From positions 24,893 to 88,892 of the forward strand of contig CAZYVT010000007.1 of the NCBI GenBank assembly GCA_964651335.1: DNA of 64,000 bases, written 5' to 3'. Within the stretch, counting starts at the first letter, position 1. The number at the start of each line of letters is the position of its first letter. The notes under the pieces were generated by a model, which worked only from the letters and a program-made list of their open reading frames with translations, was not told where the DNA came from and ran no database searches. This document shows positions 24,396 through 38,088 of the stretch, in pieces. The position numbers were made by a program, and so were the translations under genes. Source of the stretch: an uncultured Enterobacteriaceae bacterium (GTDB lineage: Bacteria; Pseudomonadota; Gammaproteobacteria; Burkholderiales; SG8-39).

Positions 24396-25381
24396 AGCAG
24401 CTGCTCTGCTTCGGCGCCCTGCTTTCCTGCTGCGCAGCACTGGCAGGGGACCCGCCGCAGACGCCGTATGGCAGCCGGCCGGCGGTGCGCGCATTCGTGC
24501 AAGAGATGGTACGGCGCCACGGTTTCGTGGAGCGCGAGCTCGTGTTCGCGTTTTCGCGCGCCCGGCGCCAGGCCGCCGTTCTGAAGGCGGTGACGCCGCC
24601 CACCGACCGCGCGCGGTCGTGGGCCGAGTACCGCGCAACGTTCCTCGACGACCGCCGCATCGAGGCCGGGATCGAGTTCTGGCGCATGCACCGCGCAGCG
24701 CTCGAGCGCGCGACCCGGGAATACGGAGTTCCCGAAGAAGTGACCGTTGCGATCATCGGGATCGAAACGTTCTACGGCCGCAATACCGGCCGCTGGCGCG
24801 TGATCGACGCGCTCACCACCCTTGCGTTCGATTATCCGCCGCGCGCCGAGTTCTTCCGCGCCGAACTCGAAAATTACCTGCTGCTCGCGCGCGAGACCGG
24901 AACCGACGTCTTTTCCGCGCGCGGGTCCTACGCGGGCGCGATCGGCATCCCGCAATTCATGCCGGGTAGCTACCTGAAATTCGCGGTCGACTTTGACGGC
25001 GACGGGATCATCGACCTGACCGCCAATCCGGCCGATGCGATCGGCAGCGTGGCGAACTTCCTCAAGCAGCACGGCTGGCGGCGCGGCGAACACGTGCTGC
25101 TCGCCGCGGAGATCCAGGGGGAGGCGTTTCGACCCTACGCGGACGGCAGCGTGCTGCCGCGCCACACGCTGGAAGATTTGGCGAAGGCAGGCGTCGCAGC
25201 GGGGGGGGCGACGACGCCGAAGACCCTCAAAGCAGTGCTCATCGAGCTCGAGACGCCGGGGCGCCCGAGCGAATTCCGCCTCGGGTTCGACAACTTCTAC
25301 GTGCTGACGCGTTACAACCGGTCGAGCTTCTACGCTGCCGCGGTGGCGGACCTTGCGGCGGCGCTGCGCGCGGCGCGCTGA
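24392..25381 (+). CDS. mltB: lytic murein transglycosylase B
   Basis: MKQLLCFGALLSCCAALAG signal sequence, then IIGIETFYGRNTG, GSYAGAIGIPQFMPGSY and FDGDGIIDL. An ATGA overlap joins it to the tgpA-like stop. Confidence 0.85.
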   Translation: MKQLLCFGALLSCCAALAGDPPQTPYGSRPAVRAFVQEMVRRHGFVERELVFAFSRARRQAAVLKAVTPPTDRARSWAEYRATFLDDRRIEAGIEFWRMHRAALERATREYGVPEEVTVAIIGIETFYGRNTGRWRVIDALTTLAFDYPPRAEFFRAELENYLLLARETGTDVFSARGSYAGAIGIPQFMPGSYLKFAVDFDGDGIIDLTANPADAIGSVANFLKQHGWRRGEHVLLAAEIQGEAFRPYADGSVLPRHTLEDLAKAGVAAGGATTPKTLKAVLIELETPGRPSEFRLGFDNFYVLTRYNRSSFYAAAVADLAAALRAAR

Positions 25382-28358: not shown

Positions 28359-29309
28359 TTGCGGCAGGGTCGCACTTGCGGCGCCTTGGATACAATTTAT
28401 CATCCTGTTTCTCAGCCTTTCGTGCCTCGCGTCGCATTGATCGTCAACCCGTCCGCCGGGCGCGGAGCCGGCGAGCGCCTGGCATCGGCGGTGCGTGCGC
28501 GGCTTCAAGAGCGCGATCTCCGCTGCGAAGTGCGGCTCACGAGGGCGCCCGGAGAGGCCACGGCACTGGTGGCTGCGGCGCTTCGCGATGGCGCCGACTG
28601 CGTGGCCGTCGCGGGCGGCGACGGCACGGTCAACGAAGCGGTCAACGGCTATGTTGGAACCGCTCGCGCAGATCAGGCGCTCGCGGTCATCCCGGTCGGC
28701 ACCGGAAACGATTTTGCGAAGATGCTCGGTGTGGGGGGCGACTGGCGTCTCGCCTGCGAAAGGATCGCTGCGGGCCGGCGCCGGCGCGTGGACCTGGGAC
28801 GCTGCAACGGCAGGATCTTCGCCAACGGTATCGGCGCCGGATTCGACGCGCAGGTCGCGCTCGAGGCGAACGGTATCCGCTGGCTGCGCGGGAACGCCGT
28901 ATACGGCGTTGCCCTCGCCCGCACGCTGCTGCTGCGTTACGCGACGCCGCACGCCCGCATCGTGCACGATGCGGGCGTGCTCGAGGGGCGCATTACGATG
29001 ATGGCGGCCGCGAACGGCACCACCTACGGCGGTGCGTTTCGCATGGCACCGGATGCGGACATTGCAGACGGACTGCTCGACCTCGTCGTCGCCGACTCAC
29101 TGTCACGCATCGGGATTTTGGGCCTCGTGCCGCACGTCATGCGCGGCACACACGTCGGACGGGCCGGCGTGACCGTGCTGCGCACCAAGCGCGTGGTGGT
29201 GGAGACGGACGAGCCGCTCGTCGTGCACGCCGATGGCGAGATCATCGACCGCGCGGCGAGGCGGCTTGAGGTCGACGTGTTGCCCGGTGCACTGCTTGCA
29301 ATCGCCTGA
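28359..29309 (+). CDS. diacylglycerol/lipid kinase family protein (YegS/BmrU-like)
   Basis: ALIVNPSAGRG, VAVAGGDGTVNEAVNG, PVGTGNDFAK. The exact start is uncertain. Confidence 0.8.
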   Translation: MRQGRTCGALDTIYHPVSQPFVPRVALIVNPSAGRGAGERLASAVRARLQERDLRCEVRLTRAPGEATALVAAALRDGADCVAVAGGDGTVNEAVNGYVGTARADQALAVIPVGTGNDFAKMLGVGGDWRLACERIAAGRRRRVDLGRCNGRIFANGIGAGFDAQVALEANGIRWLRGNAVYGVALARTLLLRYATPHARIVHDAGVLEGRITMMAAANGTTYGGAFRMAPDADIADGLLDLVVADSLSRIGILGLVPHVMRGTHVGRAGVTVLRTKRVVVETDEPLVVHADGEIIDRAARRLEVDVLPGALLAIA

Positions 29310-29320
29310 ATGATGGTATC

Positions 29321-31516
29321 GTGCCCCGGCGGCAACGGAGAGTACGCGGGCAGGGGGCCGGCTTGAGCGCGGACACGGCGAAGTACTGGGCCTTCATCAG
29401 CTACAGCCATCGCGATGCGAGGGTGGCCACGGCATTGCAGCGCGCGCTCGAAACCTACCGCCTCCCCCGGCGGCTCGTGGGCACGGTCACCGCGTTGGGT
29501 GCGCTACCCGCCTTCCTCAAGCCCGTCTTCCGCGACCGCGACGAAATGCAGGCGGGCGCGGACCTCAAGGCCACGGTCCGCGAGGCCCTGGAGCAAAGCC
29601 GCTACCTCATCGTCGTGTGCTCGCCCGAGGCGGTGCGCTCGCCCTGGGTGAACCGGGAAATCGTCGAGTTCAAGAAGCTGCACGGCGAAGCGCGCGTGCT
29701 CGCTCTCATCGCCGCGGGAGAACCTTTCTCCAGCCGCATGCCCGGGCGCGAAGCCGAGGAATGCTTCCCTGAGGCGCTGCGCTTCGCGCTCACGTCTGCG
29801 GGCCTGCCGCAGGGCGAGGCGCTGGAACCCATCGCCGCCGACCTGCGCCCGCAGGGTGACGGCAAACGCCGGGCAATGCTCAAGCTAGTGGCCGGCATGG
29901 TGGGCGTAGGCGTGGACGAACTGGTGCACCGCGATGCGCACCGCCGCGCGCGCCGCATGGCGATGGTGGCGAGCGCCTCGCTGGCGGGCATGGCGGTGAT
30001 GGCGGTGCTCACCGTCATGGCCGTGCAGTCGCGCATCGAGGCGCAAAGCCAGCGCGTGCAGGCCGAAGACCTGATCGAGTTCATGCTCGGCGACCTGCGC
30101 AAGAAGCTCGACGCCGTCGGGCGCCTCGACGTGCTCGACTCGGTGGGGGAAAAAGCGCTCGGCTACTACGCCCGGCAGGAAGCCGACCGGCTCGATGCCG
30201 ATGCACTGGGGCGCCGCTCGCGCGCCATCCACCTCATCGGCGAGATGCGCGAGCAGCGCGGCCAGCTCGAGGATGCGCTCGCCGCCTTCCAGAGCGCTGC
30301 CGACACCACCGCGCACCTGCTCGAGCGCTCGCCCTACGACGGCCAGCGCATCTTCGACCATGCGCAAAGCGTCTACTGGGTCGGTTACATCGCCTGGCAG
30401 CGCGGCCAGGCGAAGGCGGCCGAGGAGGCGTTCCGCAAGTACCTGGAGCTCGCGCAGCAGTTGGTACGCATCGACCCGAACAATCTCGACTGGGAAGTGG
30501 AACTCGCATCCGCCCATATCAACCTCGGTACCGTGCTGCTCGGCACTTCACGTCCCGCTGACGCCCTGAAGGAATATGCCGAGGCGAGCGAGCCGCTTTC
30601 GCGGCTTTCCGCAAGGCGCCCTGAGCTCGTGTTCGAACTTGCGCACAACTTTGGCTGGATCGCGAAAGCGCGGGAGGCGCTCGGGGACTACGACGCTGCC
30701 ATCGCGGCGCAGCAGACCAAGATCGAGCTGTTTCGCAAGGTGCCGGCTGCCGAGAAGAACAAGCAAGTGCAGCGCGGCCTGCAAAACGGTGCGGTCGAGC
30801 TCTCACTTCTTGAATTGGCAAGGGGCGATCTGAAGGCCGCCGAACAGTATGCACGCGACGCAGTGCAGCGTGCCGATGCACTCGTCGCAGCCGACCCGGA
30901 AAACCGTTTCTGGCAGGCGCAGCTCCATGTCGCGGACTGGGTCCTTGGCGAAGCGGAAGCCGCACTGGGGAATCGCGGCGAGGCGCGCCAGCACGTTCAG
31001 CGTGCGCTCGATGGAGCAGACAAGCTGATCGCGATCGACGCCTCGGTCGCGAACGTGCAAGTCAAATTAAAAGGCCGCGCGCTGAAGCTCGCGGCTCAAC
31101 TCGCGCTGGCGGAGAAGCGCAACGGACCCGGCGCCGAAATCGAAGCTTATCTAGCCAAGATCGGCGACTTCATCGCGCAGGGCAAAATCCTGGACAATGA
31201 GCAGGGCGTGATCGTGGCTCAGGCCGAACTGATGCTGGGCGATTTGCTCGCCGCCGAGCAAAGGCAAGATGCCGCAGCAACCCATTGGCGTGCCGCCGCC
31301 GAGCGGGCGCAGCAATACGCCGAGTATGGTAACGTGCCTGCTCTTACCCTGCTCGCGCATGCGCGGCTTCGGCTGGGGTCGGTCGAGCAGGCCAGCAAAA
31401 TCGCCATGCGTATCGAGTCCACCAGTTACCGGCACCCCGCGTATGCCGATCTTGTCCGTCTGCTATCGAACGGTGCGGGGCCGTCGATCGCGCAACCAGT
31501 ATCGAGGAGGCCCTAA
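29321..31516 (+). CDS. TIR domain - single TM - TPR-like repeat protein
   Basis: N-terminus reads YWAFISYSHRD...VFRDRDEMQAGADL...YLIVVCSPEAVRSPWVNREIVEF (a TIR with the SxWxxxE glutamate). A linker AADLRPQGDGKRRAMLKLVAGMVGVGVDELVHRD leads to RRARR plus the hydrophobic span MAMVASASLAGMAVMAVLTVMAV. About 490 aa of helical-repeat sequence follow. The alternative start is TTG at 29363, with AGGGGG 5 nt upstream. Confidence 0.8.
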   Translation: MPRRQRRVRGQGAGLSADTAKYWAFISYSHRDARVATALQRALETYRLPRRLVGTVTALGALPAFLKPVFRDRDEMQAGADLKATVREALEQSRYLIVVCSPEAVRSPWVNREIVEFKKLHGEARVLALIAAGEPFSSRMPGREAEECFPEALRFALTSAGLPQGEALEPIAADLRPQGDGKRRAMLKLVAGMVGVGVDELVHRDAHRRARRMAMVASASLAGMAVMAVLTVMAVQSRIEAQSQRVQAEDLIEFMLGDLRKKLDAVGRLDVLDSVGEKALGYYARQEADRLDADALGRRSRAIHLIGEMREQRGQLEDALAAFQSAADTTAHLLERSPYDGQRIFDHAQSVYWVGYIAWQRGQAKAAEEAFRKYLELAQQLVRIDPNNLDWEVELASAHINLGTVLLGTSRPADALKEYAEASEPLSRLSARRPELVFELAHNFGWIAKAREALGDYDAAIAAQQTKIELFRKVPAAEKNKQVQRGLQNGAVELSLLELARGDLKAAEQYARDAVQRADALVAADPENRFWQAQLHVADWVLGEAEAALGNRGEARQHVQRALDGADKLIAIDASVANVQVKLKGRALKLAAQLALAEKRNGPGAEIEAYLAKIGDFIAQGKILDNEQGVIVAQAELMLGDLLAAEQRQDAAATHWRAAAERAQQYAEYGNVPALTLLAHARLRLGSVEQASKIAMRIESTSYRHPAYADLVRLLSNGAGPSIAQPVSRRP
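29384..29725 (+). other. TIR domain region of the 29321-31516 protein
   Basis: Residues ~22-135. The putative catalytic Glu (NRE) is encoded at 29657-29659. Confidence 0.7.
29957..30025 (+). other. predicted transmembrane helix (residues ~213-235)
   Basis: A run of 23 hydrophobic residues, preceded by HRRARR. By the positive-inside rule this places the N-terminal TIR in the cytoplasm. Confidence 0.6.
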
Positions 31517-31855
31517 ATGGCAATTGTGCCCATTACCGTCATACCTGCATCATCGTCTTGCGCCCCTCCCACCGCCGGTGCAAACGTCAGGGAGCCTACG
31601 ATCTTCATGTTCACACTCGCCGACCCGGCACATTGGGAATGGCAGGGAACGTCCCCTGTTGTCGTCCAAAATGGCGCGCAGGAATTCTACGATTCGTTCA
31701 TCCACCCCAACGGCAGAAATGTGGTGCTGTTCGACAAAAATACTGACGGTACCGGTAGCCCTACCCCCGCTACCAAATACAAGTACACCGTGACGATCGT
31801 CAACATAACAACCGGCGTGCCAATGTCAATCGATCCGTTCATTCAGAATCAATGA
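31517..31855 (+). CDS. small hypothetical protein (112 aa), translationally coupled to the TIR gene
   Basis: The ATG lies directly after the upstream TAA (TAAATG). The composition looks beta-rich (KYKYTVTIVNITTG) and the protein ends IDPFIQNQ. It has no signal peptide and I recognise no family. Its GC is lower than its neighbours by eye. Confidence 0.55.
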   Translation: MAIVPITVIPASSSCAPPTAGANVREPTIFMFTLADPAHWEWQGTSPVVVQNGAQEFYDSFIHPNGRNVVLFDKNTDGTGSPTPATKYKYTVTIVNITTGVPMSIDPFIQNQ

Positions 31856-31979
31856 GCAGTAGCGTCTGAGCCTCCGCGGCGGATTGTGATATCGCCTGAG
31901 GTGGCGGCGGCGTGAGCGTCAACGTTCTTATAACCGACGTCCTTGCCGCCGCCAATTGCGGCGCGCCGCCGAATCAATA

Positions 31980-33791
31980 ATGACCGCCCCTGCGCACACG
32001 GCCATCCGCGAAGCGCTCGATGCCGGCCTAAACACCGAGGCGCTGGACCTAGCCCGCAAGGCGGTGCTCGACAGCCCGAGCGCCGCCGAGCCCCATTACC
32101 TCGGCGCACTGGCCTGTGTCCGGATGGGTGCGATCAGTGAAGCGGAAAAATGGCTTGCGCGGGTCGATCGCGAGCTTCTCGGGCATAGCCCGCTCGCGGC
32201 CGATTTCTGGAGCCTTGCGGGAAGGATCGCAAAGGAGCGTTATTCCGCCGCGAGCGATAAGACTCAGGCGGCTGCGCGTGAGCGCGCTCGCATTGCGATC
32301 GATTGCTATCAGCAAGCGTTCGGGATCAGCGGTTCTGCCTATCCCGCGGTCAATGCCGCCACCTTGGCGATGCTTTCCGGCGATGCGGCGCTTGCCCGCA
32401 CCCTCGCACGCCAAGCTCTAAGCACACTGGGTACGAGCGGCGATCACTGGCACCACGCGACCTCGGGCGAAGCCCAGTTGCTCCTCGATGAATTTGACGA
32501 GGCTCGCGACCATTACAGAGAAGCCTATCGACTGGCCGGAAACAGGTTCGGCGATATTGCCTCGATGCGCCGGCAACTCCTGCTGATCGGTTCGACCGCC
32601 GCGCGCGAGCTGCTGGAAGTCATTCCCGCCCCGCGTGTCATCGCGTTCTCCGGGCACATGATCGATCACCCGACCCGGACCACGCCGCGATTTCCCGCCA
32701 GCCTCGAGGGGAAAGTGGCGTCCGCCATACGGGAAACACTCGCGAGTCTCGGTCCCTCGATCGGATACACGCAGCCAGCCTGCGGCGCCGACATCCTGTT
32801 TCTCGAGGCGATGCAGGATTCGGGCATGCAAACCCAGATCGTGCTGCCCTTCGCGAAGGCTGATTTCGTCGAAGCAAGCGTGAGCTTCGCCGGAGGGACG
32901 TGGGTCGCCCGCTTCGAGCGCGTTCTCGACCGTGCGACCCGGATCGTCCTGGCTACCGAAGAGGCTTTCCTGGGAGATCGCGTGTTATTCGAGCACGCGG
33001 CGCACCTGATCCAGGGAATGGCATTCCTGCGCGCCAGGGAGCTCTCGACGCAGCCGCTGACGCTGACCGTGCACGAACCCGGATCGCGGGAGCTTGCTGG
33101 CGGTACCGCGGCGAGCGCTCGAATCTGGACGCGTAATGGAGGCGAGGTCGAAAACATCGACCTGGCGGCGCTGCGCGGCAGCGATCCGGTCGATCGGGAA
33201 GGGGATGACGAGGACGGGTCGGTAAATCCCCCCGATCAATCCGCGCGGCCCAGAAGCTTGAAGAGCCTTTATTTCGCCGACATCAGCGGCTTTTCCAGGA
33301 TGCCGGAAGAGTACACACCCCATTTCGTGGAAATGTTTCTGGAAACCTGCAAAAGAACGCTCGATTCACTCGAGCATCAGGCGGTCGACGCCAACACGCG
33401 CGGAGACGCTCTTTTCATCGTCTTCGAGCTGCCGAGCCACGCGGCGGAATTCGCCGTTCGCTTGCAAAAAGCGGTGAGCAGGATCGACTGGCCTGCGTTC
33501 GGACTTGCTGAGGAAACCCGCGTCCGGATGGGACTTCACACCGGTCCGGTCTTCGACATCTTCGATCCGGTCATGTCGAAGACCACGTTCTATGGAACGC
33601 ACGTAAACCGGGCGGCCCGGCTTGAGCCGATCGTGCAGCCTGGACATATCTTTGTGACCGAAGCATTTGCAGCTTCGCTCGTCGCCGATAACGAGGATCG
33701 CTTCACCTGCGACTACATCGGCGCCATGCCGCTCGCCAAGCAGTTCGGCGAAGCGCGGTTGTACCGGCTGCGGTGGGCCGACGAGGACTGA
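31980..33791 (+). CDS. multidomain protein: helical (TPR/DUF4071-like) N-domain + Rossmann (SLOG-like) module + class III adenylate/guanylate cyclase domain
   Basis: ATG at 31980; the track ORF begins at TTG 31956. N-domain: SAYPAVNAATLAMLSGD. Middle module: RVIAFSGHMIDHPTRTTPRFP...ACGADILFLEAMQDSGMQTQIVLPF. C-terminal cyclase domain: LYFADISGFS, RGDALFIVF, RMGLHTGPV, GTHVNRAARLE. Confidence 0.8.
   Translation: MTAPAHTAIREALDAGLNTEALDLARKAVLDSPSAAEPHYLGALACVRMGAISEAEKWLARVDRELLGHSPLAADFWSLAGRIAKERYSAASDKTQAAARERARIAIDCYQQAFGISGSAYPAVNAATLAMLSGDAALARTLARQALSTLGTSGDHWHHATSGEAQLLLDEFDEARDHYREAYRLAGNRFGDIASMRRQLLLIGSTAARELLEVIPAPRVIAFSGHMIDHPTRTTPRFPASLEGKVASAIRETLASLGPSIGYTQPACGADILFLEAMQDSGMQTQIVLPFAKADFVEASVSFAGGTWVARFERVLDRATRIVLATEEAFLGDRVLFEHAAHLIQGMAFLRARELSTQPLTLTVHEPGSRELAGGTAASARIWTRNGGEVENIDLAALRGSDPVDREGDDEDGSVNPPDQSARPRSLKSLYFADISGFSRMPEEYTPHFVEMFLETCKRTLDSLEHQAVDANTRGDALFIVFELPSHAAEFAVRLQKAVSRIDWPAFGLAEETRVRMGLHTGPVFDIFDPVMSKTTFYGTHVNRAARLEPIVQPGHIFVTEAFAASLVADNEDRFTCDYIGAMPLAKQFGEARLYRLRWADED
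32631..32960 (+). other. Rossmann-like beta-alpha-beta module (SLOG/LOG-DprA-like by pattern only)
   Basis: Alternating predicted strand and helix segments with a G-A-D...E helix-cap motif. The assignment is from pattern memory, not from a search. Confidence 0.4.
33255..33770 (+). other. class III nucleotide cyclase homology domain
   Basis: Metal-binding Asp codons at 33279-33281 and 33405-33407, and the Asn-Arg pair in HVNRAARLE. Asn (33393-33395) sits at the position 4 residues before the second Asp, which is Lys in adenylate cyclases and Glu in guanylate cyclases. Confidence 0.75.
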
Positions 33792-33803: not shown

Positions 33804-33880
33804 TGGTCGGGGCGGTGAGATTCGAACTCACGACCACCGGCACCCCATGCCGGTACGCTACCAGACTGCGCTACGCCCCG
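33804..33880 (-). tRNA. tRNA-Pro (anticodon GGG)
   Basis: The reverse complement CGGGGCGTAGCGCAGTCTGGTAGCGTACCGGCATGGGGTGCCGGTGGTCGTGAGTTCGAATCTCACCGCCCCGACCA folds as a cloverleaf. The anticodon loop is ATGGGGT. Confidence 0.9.
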
Positions 33881-34664: not shown

Positions 34665-37058
34665 TTAGCGGAGGCTGGCGCCGAAACGCCGCCCCAAGAG
34701 GGCGACCAGTGCGGCACACGCCGCATCCGCCTCCGAACCCGTAAGGGCACGTTCAGTATGTTGCATAACTACCCGAAATGCAATGCTTTTTTTCCCTTGC
34801 GGGAGGTTCAGTCCCTGGTAAAGATCAAACAAACCTACGTCCTGGACGATGTCCGGCCTTTCGGCGCTGATCGCGTCAAGGATCCGCCCAACCGCGACGT
34901 TCGAACCCACCAGCAGGGCGATGTCGCGTACCACCGCTGGAAATCTCGGCGGTGCCGAGGGCGTGGGTAACGGGACCCGTTCGAGGCTTGCGGCGTCGAC
35001 TTCGAAAAGTACGACCGCTTGCGGCAGATCGTACTTCTGCTGCCATCGCGGGTGCAGCTCGCCCAGCGAGCCGATCTCGGCTCCTTCGAGCAGCACGCTC
35101 GCCGCGCGGCCCGGATGGAGCGCCGGATGCACGATCGCCTCGAACTTCAGCTGTGCTGGATGATAGAGCGCCTCGAGGTCGGACTTGAGGTCATAAAAGT
35201 CCACTGCGCGCGTGGAGTCTCCCCACTGTTCCTCGACGCAAGCGCCAAAGGCGGCCGCACCGACGCGGATTGGTTGCGCGACCCCCGCCACCGACAGCGG
35301 ACCGTCTATCACTTGCGGGTCGCGGCGGTACACGCGCCCGATCTCGAACACGCGGATCCGAGACAGTTTCCGCGCCTGGTTGTAGCGCACGTTCGCGACC
35401 AGAGATCCGATCAGCGTGGAACGCATGACCGAGAGCTGGCTCGCGATCGGATTGAGCAGGCGAATCGGATTCGATTCGCCGGCAAAATCCGCCTCCCAAT
35501 CCGGCTCGACGAACGCGAAGTTGATCGTCTCGTGGTAGTCGCACGCCGCGAGCCGCTCGCGCACCGCGTGCAGCGACCGGCTGGTCTCCGAAGGCGCGCT
35601 CATCCTGGCAAGGGTCCTCGGCGGATGGGCGGGGATGTTTTCGAAGCCGTGAATCCGCGCCACCTCCTCGATCAAGTCCTCCTCCGTCTCGAGGTCGAAG
35701 CGGTGCGGAGGCGGCGAGACCACGAACGCGGCGTCGGCGCCGCCGCCCTCGCGCCGCGCCGGAAGCGCAAGGCGCGCGAATGTGTCCGCCATCTCGTCCG
35801 TCGCGATCGGCATGCCAATGACCTTCTGCGCGCGCGCGACGCGCATGCGTACCGGCTTTCGCTCCGGGAGACGGGTGACCGTGTCGTCGACCGGCCCGGG
35901 TTCGCCGCCGCAGATTTCGCGCACGAGCCGCGTGATGTACTCGATGTGATCGGCCGTGGTGGCGAAGTCGACGCCGCGCTCGAAGCGGTGACCCGCATCG
36001 GTGGTAAAGCCCAAGCGACGGGCCCGCCCTGCAATCGCCTGCGGCCACCAGAACGCCGCCTCGATGTAGATCGCGGTAGTGTCCGGCGAGACCGCGGTCT
36101 GTTCACCGCCCATCACGCCGGCGAGCGCTTCCACGCCGCGCTCGTCGGCAATCACGCCCAGGGTAGCGTCCACAGCGACCGTCTGGCCGTTCAGCAGCTC
36201 GACCGTTTCGCCCGCTCGGCCCCAGCGCACGACCAGCCCGCCCAGCACCTTGCCCAGGTCGAAGATGTGCGACGGGCGACCGAGCTCGAGCATCACGTAG
36301 TTCGAGATGTCGACCAGCGCGGAAATCGGCCGCTGGCCGGCTCGTTCGAGCCGCAGCTTCATCCAGTCGGGCGTCGCAGCGCGTGCGTTCACTCCGCGCA
36401 CCACGCGGCCGGAAAAGCGACCACACAGGTCAGGTGCCTCGATGCGCACCGGAAGCGTTTCGGCAAGGCATGCCGACACTGGCGTGAACGCCGGCGGCGT
36501 CAGCGCCGCGCGGGTCAGCGCCGCCACCTCCCGCGCCACGCCCAGAACAGAAAGGCAGTCGCCGCGGTTCGGCGTCAGGCTGACCGCGAACACGCGCTCG
36601 TCCAGATCGAGCGTACAACGCACGTTTTCGCCCGTCTCCGCATCGGCAGGCAGCTCGAGCAGGCCCGCGTGATCATCCGAAAGTCCCAGTTCGCGCGCCG
36701 AGCAGAGCATCCCGAAACTCTCGATGCCGCGCATCCTCGCCTGCTTGATCTCCAGACCGCCCGGCAACCGCGCGCCGGGAAGCGCCAGGGGCGCCTTCAT
36801 CCCGGCGCGAACATTCGGCGCTCCGCAGACCACCTGCAGCGGTCCGCTGCCCGCGTCCACTCTGCACACGGTGAGCTGATCGGCGTTGGGATGCCGATCG
36901 ACCGAGAGCACGTCCGCCACCACCACGCCGGAACACGCAGGCCCAACGGGTTCGCAGGACTCCACTTCCAGTCCGGACATTGTGAGCAAGTGCGCCAGCT
37001 CTTCGGCCGCAAGCGGCGGATCGCAGAAGCTTCGCAGCCAGTTTTCAGGAACGTTCAT
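34665..37058 (-). CDS. pheT: phenylalanine--tRNA ligase beta subunit
   Basis: MNVPENWLRSFCDP start (ATG 37058; the track uses TTG 37079). It has B3/4, B5 and FDX-ACB regions and is about 797 aa. Confidence 0.95.
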   Translation of the reverse strand: MNVPENWLRSFCDPPLAAEELAHLLTMSGLEVESCEPVGPACSGVVVADVLSVDRHPNADQLTVCRVDAGSGPLQVVCGAPNVRAGMKAPLALPGARLPGGLEIKQARMRGIESFGMLCSARELGLSDDHAGLLELPADAETGENVRCTLDLDERVFAVSLTPNRGDCLSVLGVAREVAALTRAALTPPAFTPVSACLAETLPVRIEAPDLCGRFSGRVVRGVNARAATPDWMKLRLERAGQRPISALVDISNYVMLELGRPSHIFDLGKVLGGLVVRWGRAGETVELLNGQTVAVDATLGVIADERGVEALAGVMGGEQTAVSPDTTAIYIEAAFWWPQAIAGRARRLGFTTDAGHRFERGVDFATTADHIEYITRLVREICGGEPGPVDDTVTRLPERKPVRMRVARAQKVIGMPIATDEMADTFARLALPARREGGGADAAFVVSPPPHRFDLETEEDLIEEVARIHGFENIPAHPPRTLARMSAPSETSRSLHAVRERLAACDYHETINFAFVEPDWEADFAGESNPIRLLNPIASQLSVMRSTLIGSLVANVRYNQARKLSRIRVFEIGRVYRRDPQVIDGPLSVAGVAQPIRVGAAAFGACVEEQWGDSTRAVDFYDLKSDLEALYHPAQLKFEAIVHPALHPGRAASVLLEGAEIGSLGELHPRWQQKYDLPQAVVLFEVDAASLERVPLPTPSAPPRFPAVVRDIALLVGSNVAVGRILDAISAERPDIVQDVGLFDLYQGLNLPQGKKSIAFRVVMQHTERALTGSEADAACAALVALLGRRFGASLR

Positions 37059-37071
37059 GTCGCATTCGTGC

Positions 37072-38088
37072 TCAGGCAAACTGCTTGAGAAAGCGAAGAT
37101 CGCCGTCGAAGAACAGCCGCAGATCGTCGATTCCGTAGCGCAGCATGGTCAAGCGCTCAAGGCCGCTGCCAAACGCAAAACCCATGTAGCGCTCGGGATC
37201 GAGTCCGAAATTGCGCACCACGCTCGGATGCACCTGCCCGGCGCCCGAGATCTCGAGCCAGCGCCCCCTCAGCGGCCCCGAGCCGAATTGCATGTCGATT
37301 TCCGCCGAGGGCTCGGTGAACGGAAAGTACGACGGCCGGAAGCGCACTTCGAGTTCGTCGCTCTCGAAAAAGCGTCGCAGGAAGTCCGTGTAAACGCCTT
37401 TCAGGTCCGCGAAACTCACGTTCTCATCGATCCATAGCCCCTCGACCTGGTGAAACATCGGCGAGTGCGTGGCGTCGGAGTCGACGCGATAAGTGCGCCC
37501 CGGCGCGATCACCTTGAGCGGTGGACGGTGCATCCGCGCGTACCGTACCTGCATCGGGCTCGTATGCGTGCGCAGCAGGAGCTGCAACCCGTCGGCGTCC
37601 TTGAGGTCCACGTAGAACGTGTCCTGCATCGAGCGTGCGGGGTGGTTCTCCGGATTGTTGAGCGCGGTAAAGTTGTACCAGTCGGTCTCGATCTCCGGAC
37701 CTTCGGCGACGTCGAATCCGACCGAGCGGAAGATCTGCTCGACTCGGTGCCACGTGCGGGTGATCGGGTGCAGCCCTCCCCGACTGCGGCCGCGCCCGGG
37801 AAGCGTCACGTCCAGCGCCTCTCCGGTGAGCTTCGCCTCCATGCGCGCCTGCGCCAGTTCGGCGCGGCGGCGCTCGAGGGCGGTCTCCAGCCGCTCCTTG
37901 GCCGCGTTGATCGCCTGGCCGGCGCCTCGCCGTTCCTCGGCGGAGAGCTTGCCCAGCGACTTGAGCCGCACCGTCAGTTCGCCGCTCTTGCCGAGGTAGC
38001 GCGCCTTGGTGTTTTCAAGCGAAGCCGGGTCTCCTGCGGCCGCAAGCTCCGCGAGAGCACGCGCGACGATGGTTTCTAGGTCTTGCAT
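37072..38088 (-). CDS. pheS: phenylalanine--tRNA ligase alpha subunit
   Basis: 338 aa with HPITRT, FTEPSAE and class II motifs. Confidence 0.95.

Follow-up and report, generated by a model that had tools for sequence, protein, structure and literature searches.

A window of 64,000 nucleotides (the whole stretch of DNA analyzed, positions 24,893 to 88,892 of contig CAZYVT010000007.1, assembly GCA_964651335.1, from an uncultured bacterium) encodes three adjacent genes, which we call A, B and C. The product of A combines a TIR domain, a single transmembrane (TM) helix and a TPR region, that of B is a small soluble beta-sandwich protein, and that of C joins a TPR-S domain, a SLOG-fold domain and a class III nucleotidyl cyclase. 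Comparison with related loci makes it, in our judgment, an even call that the three constitute one Thoeris-like signaling cassette with a new output, in which the product of the TIR enzyme would be read by the TPR-S and SLOG domains, these would control the cyclase, and the resulting cyclic nucleotide (cNMP) would act on transcription. The novelty lies in putative TIR signaling of Thoeris type that combines a TIR on a membrane receptor with a cyclase as its output and adds an accessory protein with a DP motif. A TIR paired with a SLOG-type module wired to a cyclase had been put forward in the original prediction, a reading of the stretch made without database searches; the pairing now gains comparative support from the TIR genes found beside C across phyla, from the swapped outputs of the SLOG partners of A, and from a CRP-type gene in 11 related loci.

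Domain architecture of the TIR protein and the cyclase protein

Gene A (29321..31516; all features of the three genes are on the plus strand) encodes 731 residues from a GTG start by ORF (open reading frame) call and Pfam, and an alternative start at 29363 yields the 717-residue form that gene callers annotate elsewhere (P0128). Pfam recognizes TIR_2 at residues 25–129 (E 9e-12), ThsB_TIR (E 3e-7) and TPR matches between residues 313 and 570. Within the TIR domain (residues 22–135, 29384..29725, delimited by Pfam and by alignment to the TIR domain of the plant protein Roq1), the motif S107-P-W-V-N-R-E113 aligns with S-T-W-C-L-E-E of Roq1, so that Glu113 (codon 29657-29659) falls on the position of the catalytic glutamate of plant TIR domains. 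At least 98% of 119 full-length relatives retain this residue, a conservation that bears out the SxWxxxE glutamate that the original prediction had singled out.

The predicted TM helix (residues 213–236, 29957..30028) is the only such hydrophobic segment of A (Kyte-Doolittle maximum 2.0). It is followed by a conserved juxtamembrane segment and the TPR region (together 30029..31513, delimited from the conservation profile). Conservation among the 119 relatives is strong in the TIR domain, at E113 and in the ~170 residues that come next after the helix, and the final ~300 residues vary greatly. On average these sequences have 4.7 lysines and arginines ahead of the helix and 2.6 behind it, a charge distribution that suggests a cytoplasmic TIR domain and a TPR region outside. 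Residues 200–323 are homologous to the segment that follows the NTPase in nSTAND1 proteins, and A thus looks like an nSTAND1 protein in which a TIR domain replaces the NTPase. In the Pfam scan A has no nSTAND1 NTPase domain (PF20703), only the TM and TPR half being common to both, and it gives no cNMP_binding match at E up to 0.1. Comparison of full-length A with solved structures returned no match. A search of a database of 5.8 billion proteins gave 4109 significant matches, a total that may be inflated by the TPR region; the best 120 of the 4109 are near full length. Tandem pairs of TIR-TM-TPR genes are seen in the metagenomic loci L109 (374-3448) and L110 (457-3458; L-numbers are labels of the genome and metagenome loci compared in this analysis).

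Gene C (31980..33791; 603 residues from an ATG, in a frame open from 31956) specifies a protein identical to database entry P0001. Its helical region as a whole (31980-32594) contains a match to TPR-S (PF20308, E 7e-14, 32043..32369), overlapped by one to MAP3K_TRAF_bd (DUF4071, E 1e-7). The helical N-domain of the original prediction is indeed helical, and its identity can now be corrected to TPR-S, as in the effector ThsI of type VIII Thoeris. The middle segment (RVIAFSGHMID...ACGADILFLEAMQDSG...IVLPF), modeled alone with AlphaFold2 (AF2), forms a six-stranded alpha/beta domain (pLDDT 84.9). Its best Foldseek matches in the PDB are DprA, ShosA, the MoCo carrier protein, LOG and the N-terminal domain of TRPM2 (E down to 4e-5, probability 1.0, TM 0.42-0.46), all of the SLOG superfamily, and the Rossmann/SLOG-like character proposed earlier for this segment agrees with them. 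The SLOG-fold domain so defined (residues 210–400, 32607..33179) bears the signature SGH ... GxD ... GGT; it is nearest in fold to DprA, not ThsA, and by sequence it matches no Pfam SLOG family. Six residues, G225, H226, G269, D271, P290 and G375, do not vary in any of the 69 non-identical family members compared. The LOG motif PGGxGTxxE is not kept, GGTAAT standing there instead.

The cyclase domain (33264..33734; Pfam Guanylate_cyc, PF00211, E 7e-15) was aligned to sGC-beta and GRESAG4, and its motifs FADISGF, RGDALF and HVNRAARLE match those of sGC-beta. Both metal-binding aspartates (D434 and D476), the asparagine (N543) and the arginine (R547) are present, and all are invariant in 14 close relatives; across 64 diverse C-family sequences D476 is kept in 64, R547 in 63, D434 in 60 and N543 in 39. 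The catalytic completeness claimed at the outset thus stands for these four residues, and does not extend to the base-specifying pair. This pair is Asn472/Thr536, not Lys/Asp (ATP) or Glu/Cys (GTP), and it varies across the family. Because of it, the cyclic nucleotide that C would make is not predictable. The same 5.8-billion-protein database gave 382 significant matches to C, and the best 120 of the 382 are near full length, with 59-82% identity and generic names. A homolog of C in Planctomycetota (L063 796-3216; also L064 and L065) carries an N-terminal RyR domain (PF02026, E 2e-28) ahead of the TPR-S, SLOG and cyclase domains; cyclic ADP-ribose (cADPR) is a ryanodine-receptor agonist in animals.

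Gene neighborhoods of the two families

For the C family, one genome per species was taken, giving 67 loci. These are mostly from uncultured Betaproteobacteria (Casimicrobiaceae, Usitatibacter), with some from Spirochaetia, Planctomycetota, Verrucomicrobiota and Bacteroidota. An iterated TIR profile locates a TIR domain at most 7 kb from C in 47 of the 67; the remainder are for the most part contigs that break off near C. The TIR genes concerned have several architectures (TIR-TM-TPR, SIR2-TIR with nSTAND1-TM-TPR, TIR-WD40, TIR-TPR and short TIR proteins), which span Betaproteobacteria, Spirochaetia, Bacteroidota and Planctomycetota. The recurrence of the pairing across unrelated TIR architectures argues that the TIR and the SLOG/TPR-S core communicate.

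The genes that precede C can be sorted accordingly. Some loci have an A-type TIR-TM-TPR gene in this place. Others have a SIR2+TIR gene and then an nSTAND1 NTPase gene with an A-like TM-TPR tail, whose stop overlaps the start of C; roughly one in two C-family loci has a gene for an nSTAND1 protein ahead of C. In a third type a TIR-WD40 gene is followed by a 464-residue protein without a family match, in a fourth the preceding gene is TIR-TPR, and a single locus has DUF4062 (DrHyd, a TIR relative) with nSTAND1 and TPR. Loci of Spirochaetia and Leptospiraceae have their TIR gene directly 3' of C. Other genomes, too, have homologs of A, B and C side by side, surrounded by different genes (L006-L008, L012, L016, L017, L028, L062, L080-L085), and the co-localization expected for a cassette is therefore found. 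The ~464-residue protein stands directly before C in L036 (8450-9844) and L038 (5782-7176), both of TIR-WD40 type, and is also encoded on the Caballeronia plasmid pSBC2-4 (L160 4508-5899), with TIR and DUF4231 genes nearby.

For the A family, 84 A-centered loci were scanned with profiles for all parts. A B-like ORF follows 52 of the 62 TM-TPR genes, namely 38 of 48 TIR-type A genes and all 14 relatives (14/14) that have a Ser/Thr kinase in the place of the TIR domain and an extracytoplasmic function (ECF) sigma gene upstream (for example L121 3969-7874, L128 2179-5907 and L133 2242-5299). The profile scans detect no B next to nSTAND1 or TIR-WD40 genes. Since B tracks the TM-TPR genes of both TIR and kinase type and is absent beside nSTAND1 and TIR-WD40 genes, it goes with the A-type TM-TPR module; judging from this distribution, B partners the TM-TPR portion of A and not C. 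The original prediction had coupled B into the cassette as a whole, which holds for its adjoining A and not for a partnership with C. In L133 the kinase TM-TPR and B-like module is followed by a cyclase-STAND-TPR gene (974 residues).

A SLOG partner is found beside 23 of the 29 TIR-type A genes with enough flank, and it takes three forms. One is C itself (7 loci). Another is a stand-alone SLOG of ~200 residues directly before A, its gene overlapping the start of A, and the last is a SLOG protein of ~600 residues, after the B genes, with multiple TM segments and weak DUF4231/SLATT_6 matches, that is, a SLATT-like tail. The stand-alone SLOG has in common with C the motifs GVTGHR / LAEGxD..LP / GGT. 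Alignment with the C family by hhalign gives E 3.8e-4 at a probability of only 36%, and a member matches Pfam DprA (DNA_processg_A) at E 0.005 and YpsA at E 0.34. On this comparison of genes, A has several alternative SLOG proteins to pair with, and C is only one of these. The occurrence of A with an output-less stand-alone SLOG argues that the cyclase is not essential to the core system, and that the SLOG domain could be a regulator or an enzyme.

Candidate output genes lie next to C. A CRP/FNR-type gene with cNMP_binding (E 4e-23) and HTH_Crp_2 domains stands directly after C in 9 loci (L035, L036, L038-L042, L047, L061), mostly of TIR-WD40 or TIR-TPR type, three of them being cut close to C so that the upstream gene is not seen. 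In L017, where the order is CRP-A-B-C, and in L092, a homolog of this regulator with 42-43% identity immediately precedes A, which makes 11 CRP-bearing loci in total. In three loci of nSTAND1 type (L001 9806-10579, L014 11824-12618, L043 11781-12560) the gene directly after C encodes a Bestrophin-like membrane protein (PF14023), which could be a channel-type output. The TPR-S and SLOG proteins of Bacteroidota have a different C-terminus, with a REC-cyclase gene and a hybrid histidine kinase alongside. The window itself encodes no nuclease, NADase, pore or protease output, in keeping with the earlier remark that no obvious killing effector is present. The output of the cassette looks transcriptional.

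A putative TIR-to-cyclase relay and its alternatives

We propose that A would be a single-pass membrane receptor with a cytoplasmic TIR enzyme, one TM helix and a variable TPR region, and that B probably stands on the input side of its TM-TPR module. Upon triggering of A, the TIR domain would convert nicotinamide adenine dinucleotide (NAD+) into an ADP-ribose-derived messenger, which C would bind through TPR-S, SLOG or both; gene linkage and the roles of these domains in Thoeris types VIII and I point to this step. Binding of the messenger would switch on the class III cyclase of C, and a CRP/FNR-type regulator would read the cNMP, with altered transcription rather than direct killing as the predicted result. 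This flow from the TIR through C and a cNMP to a transcription factor is favored because the constant SLOG core has different outputs, because sensor domains precede the cyclase in C and because related cassettes encode a CRP-type receptor. Regulated class III cyclases of bacteria usually have their sensors at the N-terminus and the cyclase at the C-terminus, and effectors of Thoeris and CBASS are known to keep the sensor constant while outputs are exchanged. A fuller version of the relay is possible, although we hold it to be doubtful: A, shaped like a Toll-like receptor (TLR) whose repeat sensor faces outward and whose TIR domain faces inward, would turn an extracytoplasmic cue into an NAD-derived nucleotide, this would act on the TPR-S/SLOG-gated cyclase, the cNMP, read by a dedicated CRP-type factor, would change the transcription program, and a self-cleaving B would take part in the trigger.

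To our knowledge, all characterized bacterial TIR-signaling systems (Thoeris types I-XI) end in a killing or arresting effector, and all characterized immune cyclases (Pycsar, Pucsar, CBASS) stand at the start of their pathways. The comparative evidence points to a cyclase downstream of the TIR and to a transcription factor downstream of the cyclase. If this is true, the cassette would provide the first case in which an NAD-derived messenger is relayed to a cyclic nucleotide, plugging TIR signaling into classical cNMP signaling, a two-tier second-messenger cascade absent from described bacterial systems. TPR-S and SLOG sensors would be able to drive signaling enzymes as well as toxins, and A would offer a tractable bacterial membrane receptor with a TIR output. 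The family would be large: its members, which current defense-finding tools miss, would number in the hundreds and come mainly from uncultured Betaproteobacteria of soil. Three predictions would be testable: a cADPR isomer, a cNMP and a responding regulon.

Structural and genomic comparison with known systems places the cassette nearest to Thoeris, of which a 2025 survey defined types I-XI. According to that survey, the SLOG domain of the type I protein ThsA binds 3'cADPR, and canonical cADPR is the signal that acts on the type VIII effector ThsI ('CMP hydrolase and TPR'; bioRxiv 10.64898/2025.12.03.692087). Because the helical domain of C is Pfam TPR-S, as in ThsI, the module is a Thoeris relative. 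As in type VIII, a TIR gene with the catalytic glutamate adjoins a gene for a PF20308 protein, and the logic would match, a TIR-made nucleotide being read by the partner protein. The two differ in that ThsI combines TPR-S with a CMP-hydrolase-type domain whereas C combines it with SLOG and a class III cyclase, in that ThsB is a short soluble TIR protein whereas A is TIR-TM-TPR, and in that Thoeris has no B-like gene; type VIII has a demonstrated defense phenotype, whereas for the cassette a role in defense would be putative. C was also considered as a whole-length homolog of ThsI and rejected as such (hhalign E 0.43), only the TPR-S domain being in common. On the E. coli IncP plasmid pKMi029_2, a type VIII-like pair (L162 2276-5472) comprises a TIR protein 56% identical to the validated Yersinia ThsB and a ThsI-like partner with PF20308 TPR-S (E 1.5e-17), the same Pfam domain as in C. 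This plasmid is conjugative, and the pair adjoins a type VII-like one (TIR and a SLATT_1/SLATT_3/DUF4231 protein).

With type I Thoeris (ThsB and the SIR2-SLOG protein ThsA) the cassette has in common a TIR gene paired with a SLOG-containing partner, whereas the SLOG domain of C is nearer to DprA than to ThsA and its output is a cyclase rather than SIR2 or a pore. The SLOG and multi-TM partners of A (DUF4231/SLATT_6-like) resemble the '4TM SLOG' candidates of the survey (Table S2), two of which were tested and gave no protection in E. coli (bioRxiv 10.64898/2025.12.03.692087). Of the features that define Thoeris, the catalytic-Glu TIR is present, an adjacent protein with sensor domains is present and its adjacency is conserved, and a toxic or growth-arresting output domain is absent.

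Other systems are more distant. The nSTAND1 NLR-like conflict systems have C-terminal halves homologous to A from its TM helix through the juxtamembrane segment to the TPR region; A differs from them by a TIR domain in place of the STAND NTPase. Pycsar and Pucsar likewise encode a class III-type cyclase and a TIR protein side by side; the order of events is probably opposite there, A is without a cNMP-binding domain, and C has two N-terminal sensor domains that the Pycsar cyclase PycC lacks. With cAMP-CRP signaling the cassette has in common the N-terminal sensors ahead of a class III cyclase and, in the 11 related loci, a CRP/FNR gene beside it, whereas its predicted input is a TIR-derived nucleotide and its base-specifying residues are Asn/Thr. 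The claim that the architecture matches no named system holds for PADLOC, which gives only weak domain-level matches (SAVED_TIR, PDC-S66, ThsB, PycC), and for NCBIfam, where nothing exceeds the cut-off; kinship with Thoeris means that the cassette is not unrelated to known systems. In the parts of the literature searched there is no description of a TIR and TPR-S/SLOG/cyclase cassette. The portion covered of the Thoeris survey tables lists no cyclase partner (bioRxiv 10.64898/2025.12.03.692087), and that of the nSTAND1 neighborhood tables of Kaur et al. 2021 (eLife 10:e70394) lists no TPR-S/SLOG/cyclase partner, while the TPR-S architectures in the covered supplementary tables include CASPASE+TPR-S and TIR+TPR+TPR-S.

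Several observations weigh against the proposed relay. No CRP-like gene is found within the 64-kb window, whose cassette is surrounded by housekeeping genes and apparently does not lie in a defense island, and PADLOC names no system there. A occurs without C, in some loci only with the stand-alone SLOG that lacks an output domain. In the cyclase, the base-specifying residues are non-canonical and the transition-state asparagine is replaced by Thr or Ser in about 40% of distant C-family members. The invariant His226 and Asp271 of the SLOG domain fit catalysis as well as binding. Most B proteins are without export signals, yet the TPR region that they accompany is predicted to be periplasmic. 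The role of the ThsI TPR as a sensor is only presumed by the authors of the survey, who mention its earlier prediction by Aravind and colleagues (bioRxiv 10.64898/2025.12.03.692087).

The relay could also run in reverse, as in Pycsar and Pucsar. C would then sense the trigger and make a cNMP, and A, activated by it, would deplete NAD as the effector. We regard this order as improbable. It has a precedent in Pucsar, where cyclase-made 3',5'-cyclic GMP (cGMP) activates a CNBD-TIR NADase (bioRxiv 10.64898/2026.08.12.744502), and it agrees with the weak match of C to the PADLOC PycC model (E 1.3e-3, 15.9 bits) and with the catalytic glutamate in the TIR domain of A; yet the TIR effectors of Pucsar and Pycsar have a cNMP-binding domain, which Pfam does not find in A, and A-family genes pair with SLOG partners that have no cyclase. 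The SLOG and TPR-S domains of C would be left without a TIR-linked role, and the cNMP receptor in related cassettes is a CRP-type regulator, not a TIR protein. Somewhat less improbable, and still unlikely, is a SLOG domain that acts as an enzyme or a buffer, processing or destroying the TIR product or another nucleotide and so setting a threshold, with the cyclase driven through TPR-S by some other input. LOG-type SLOG proteins are nucleotide hydrolases, and the SLOG domain of C has its invariant His226, Asp271 and Gly-rich loops; the output-less stand-alone SLOGs that overlap the start of A would also be at home in such a scheme. The closest folds of the SLOG domain of C, on the other hand, are DprA-type and ligand-binding SLOGs rather than LOG, with PGGxGTxxE replaced, and the SLOG and multi-TM partners of A have the layout of a sensor joined to an effector. 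It seems to us very improbable that C is an unrelated regulated cyclase placed by chance next to a TIR NADase system that A and B form on their own. A and B do occur without C and C without A, and no terminator or promoter signal can be assigned in the locus; but C without A has another TIR gene alongside, A without C usually has another SLOG gene alongside, and the A-B-C order recurs with unrelated flanks.

A different question is whether the TIR-to-cyclase relay would serve immunity at all, or physiological signaling about the envelope or environment, in which A would sense a signal from outside the cytoplasm and gene expression would be tuned through the TIR/cNMP relay. The latter is a tentative possibility. 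The relatives with a Ser/Thr kinase in place of the TIR domain and an ECF sigma gene upstream, the transcriptional output through a CRP-type partner, the REC-cyclase and hybrid histidine kinase genes beside the TPR-S and SLOG proteins of Bacteroidota, and housekeeping flanks (in the window, L007 and L008) with no killing effector would all point this way. The alternative partners of C, which are parts of conflict systems (SIR2-TIR, the nSTAND1 NTPase, DUF4062), and the SLATT-like tails of SLOG partners of A, which look like pore effectors, would point the other way, toward immunity. So would the patchy occurrence of the cassette in differing genomic contexts and the fast evolution of the sensor end of A and of all of B, which shows 49-51% identity among close relatives where A shows 79-84% and C 73-75%.

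Protein B and the surroundings of the locus

Gene B (31517..31855) encodes 112 residues. As noted in the original prediction, it starts on the base after the stop of A: the junction (...GGAGGCCCTAAATGGCA) reads TAAATG, with the ATG of B immediately after the TAA of A, and a GGAGG Shine-Dalgarno sequence lies inside the end of A, 7 nt ahead of this ATG. B has no match in the Pfam, PADLOC or NCBIfam libraries, and its homologs in the protein database comprise 7 close and about 30 distant proteins. Its AF2 model is an all-beta sandwich, with a pLDDT of 80.6 for the best model and much worse values for the other four. The top PDB matches by Foldseek are eleven entries of SO1698 from Shewanella (E 1.3e-3, probability 1.0, TM 0.52-0.61). 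These entries (3n55, 3nj*) are labeled aspartic peptidase. We take SO1698 to be the self-cleaving Asp-Pro family DUF1888 or 'DP-EP', cleaving itself presumably at D116-P117. Against viral structures (BFVD), B finds only generic beta-sandwich matches, none significant.

The Asp106-Pro107 pair of B (codons 31832-31837) is part of an invariant C-terminal DPxIxN motif and is itself invariant in the aligned homologs. A profile of the B family aligns DPxIxN with 'SPDPQIINR' of SO1698, thus covering D116-P117, only at E 0.62; the aligned stretch S114-P115-D116-P117-Q118 consists of residues that are individually mutated in the PDB entries. Since a broader B profile and Pfam scans yield no match to SO1698 or DP-EP, the relation to this best fold match is a lead only, without a significant sequence-profile match, and membership of B in the DP-EP family at the sequence level was rejected.

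B-like proteins have 100-220 residues and occur in one or two copies per locus, and the C-terminal DP is kept in 71 of 74 distinct sequences. An N-terminal hydrophobic stretch is present in 7 of the 74 and a membrane anchor after the DP in 5, the rest looking soluble; with these counts a periplasmic partnership of B with the TPR region of A was not adopted. Some B-like proteins (L120 8550-9098, L127 7327-7992, L137 8120-8698, L129 5879-6538) continue past the DP motif with a linker and a C-terminal TM helix. Cleavage at Asp-Pro in such anchored proteins would therefore release the beta-sandwich from the membrane.

The three genes lie, as the ORF, tRNA and Pfam scans agree with the original prediction in placing them, on the same strand between a lipid-kinase gene of DAGK/YegS type (28359-29309, Pfam DAGK_cat and YegS_C) and a minus-strand tRNA-Pro(ggg) gene (33804-33880). 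Given their database homologs, A, B and C are real genes and not chance ORFs. Housekeeping genes extend further upstream (NlpD-like M23/LysM, Pcm, SurE and a YbaK-type editing domain) and downstream (MerR, an IHF/HU-type protein and PheT). Insertion of a mobile element at tRNA-Pro was considered and rejected, there being no direct repeat of the tRNA end, no integrase and no att-like repeat. A scan of the locus for promoters and terminators gives no signal above shuffled expectation. ARAGORN calls a 94-nt tRNA-Ala(tgc) at 34956-35049 (plus strand) within pheT (34665-37079, opposite strand), and its length and position suggest a false positive. The G+C content falls to 0.564 at 31500-31999, which covers gene B and the spacer between B and C, from 0.62-0.70 in A, C and the flanks; this dip fits B being the fastest-evolving or the most recently exchanged part of the cassette.

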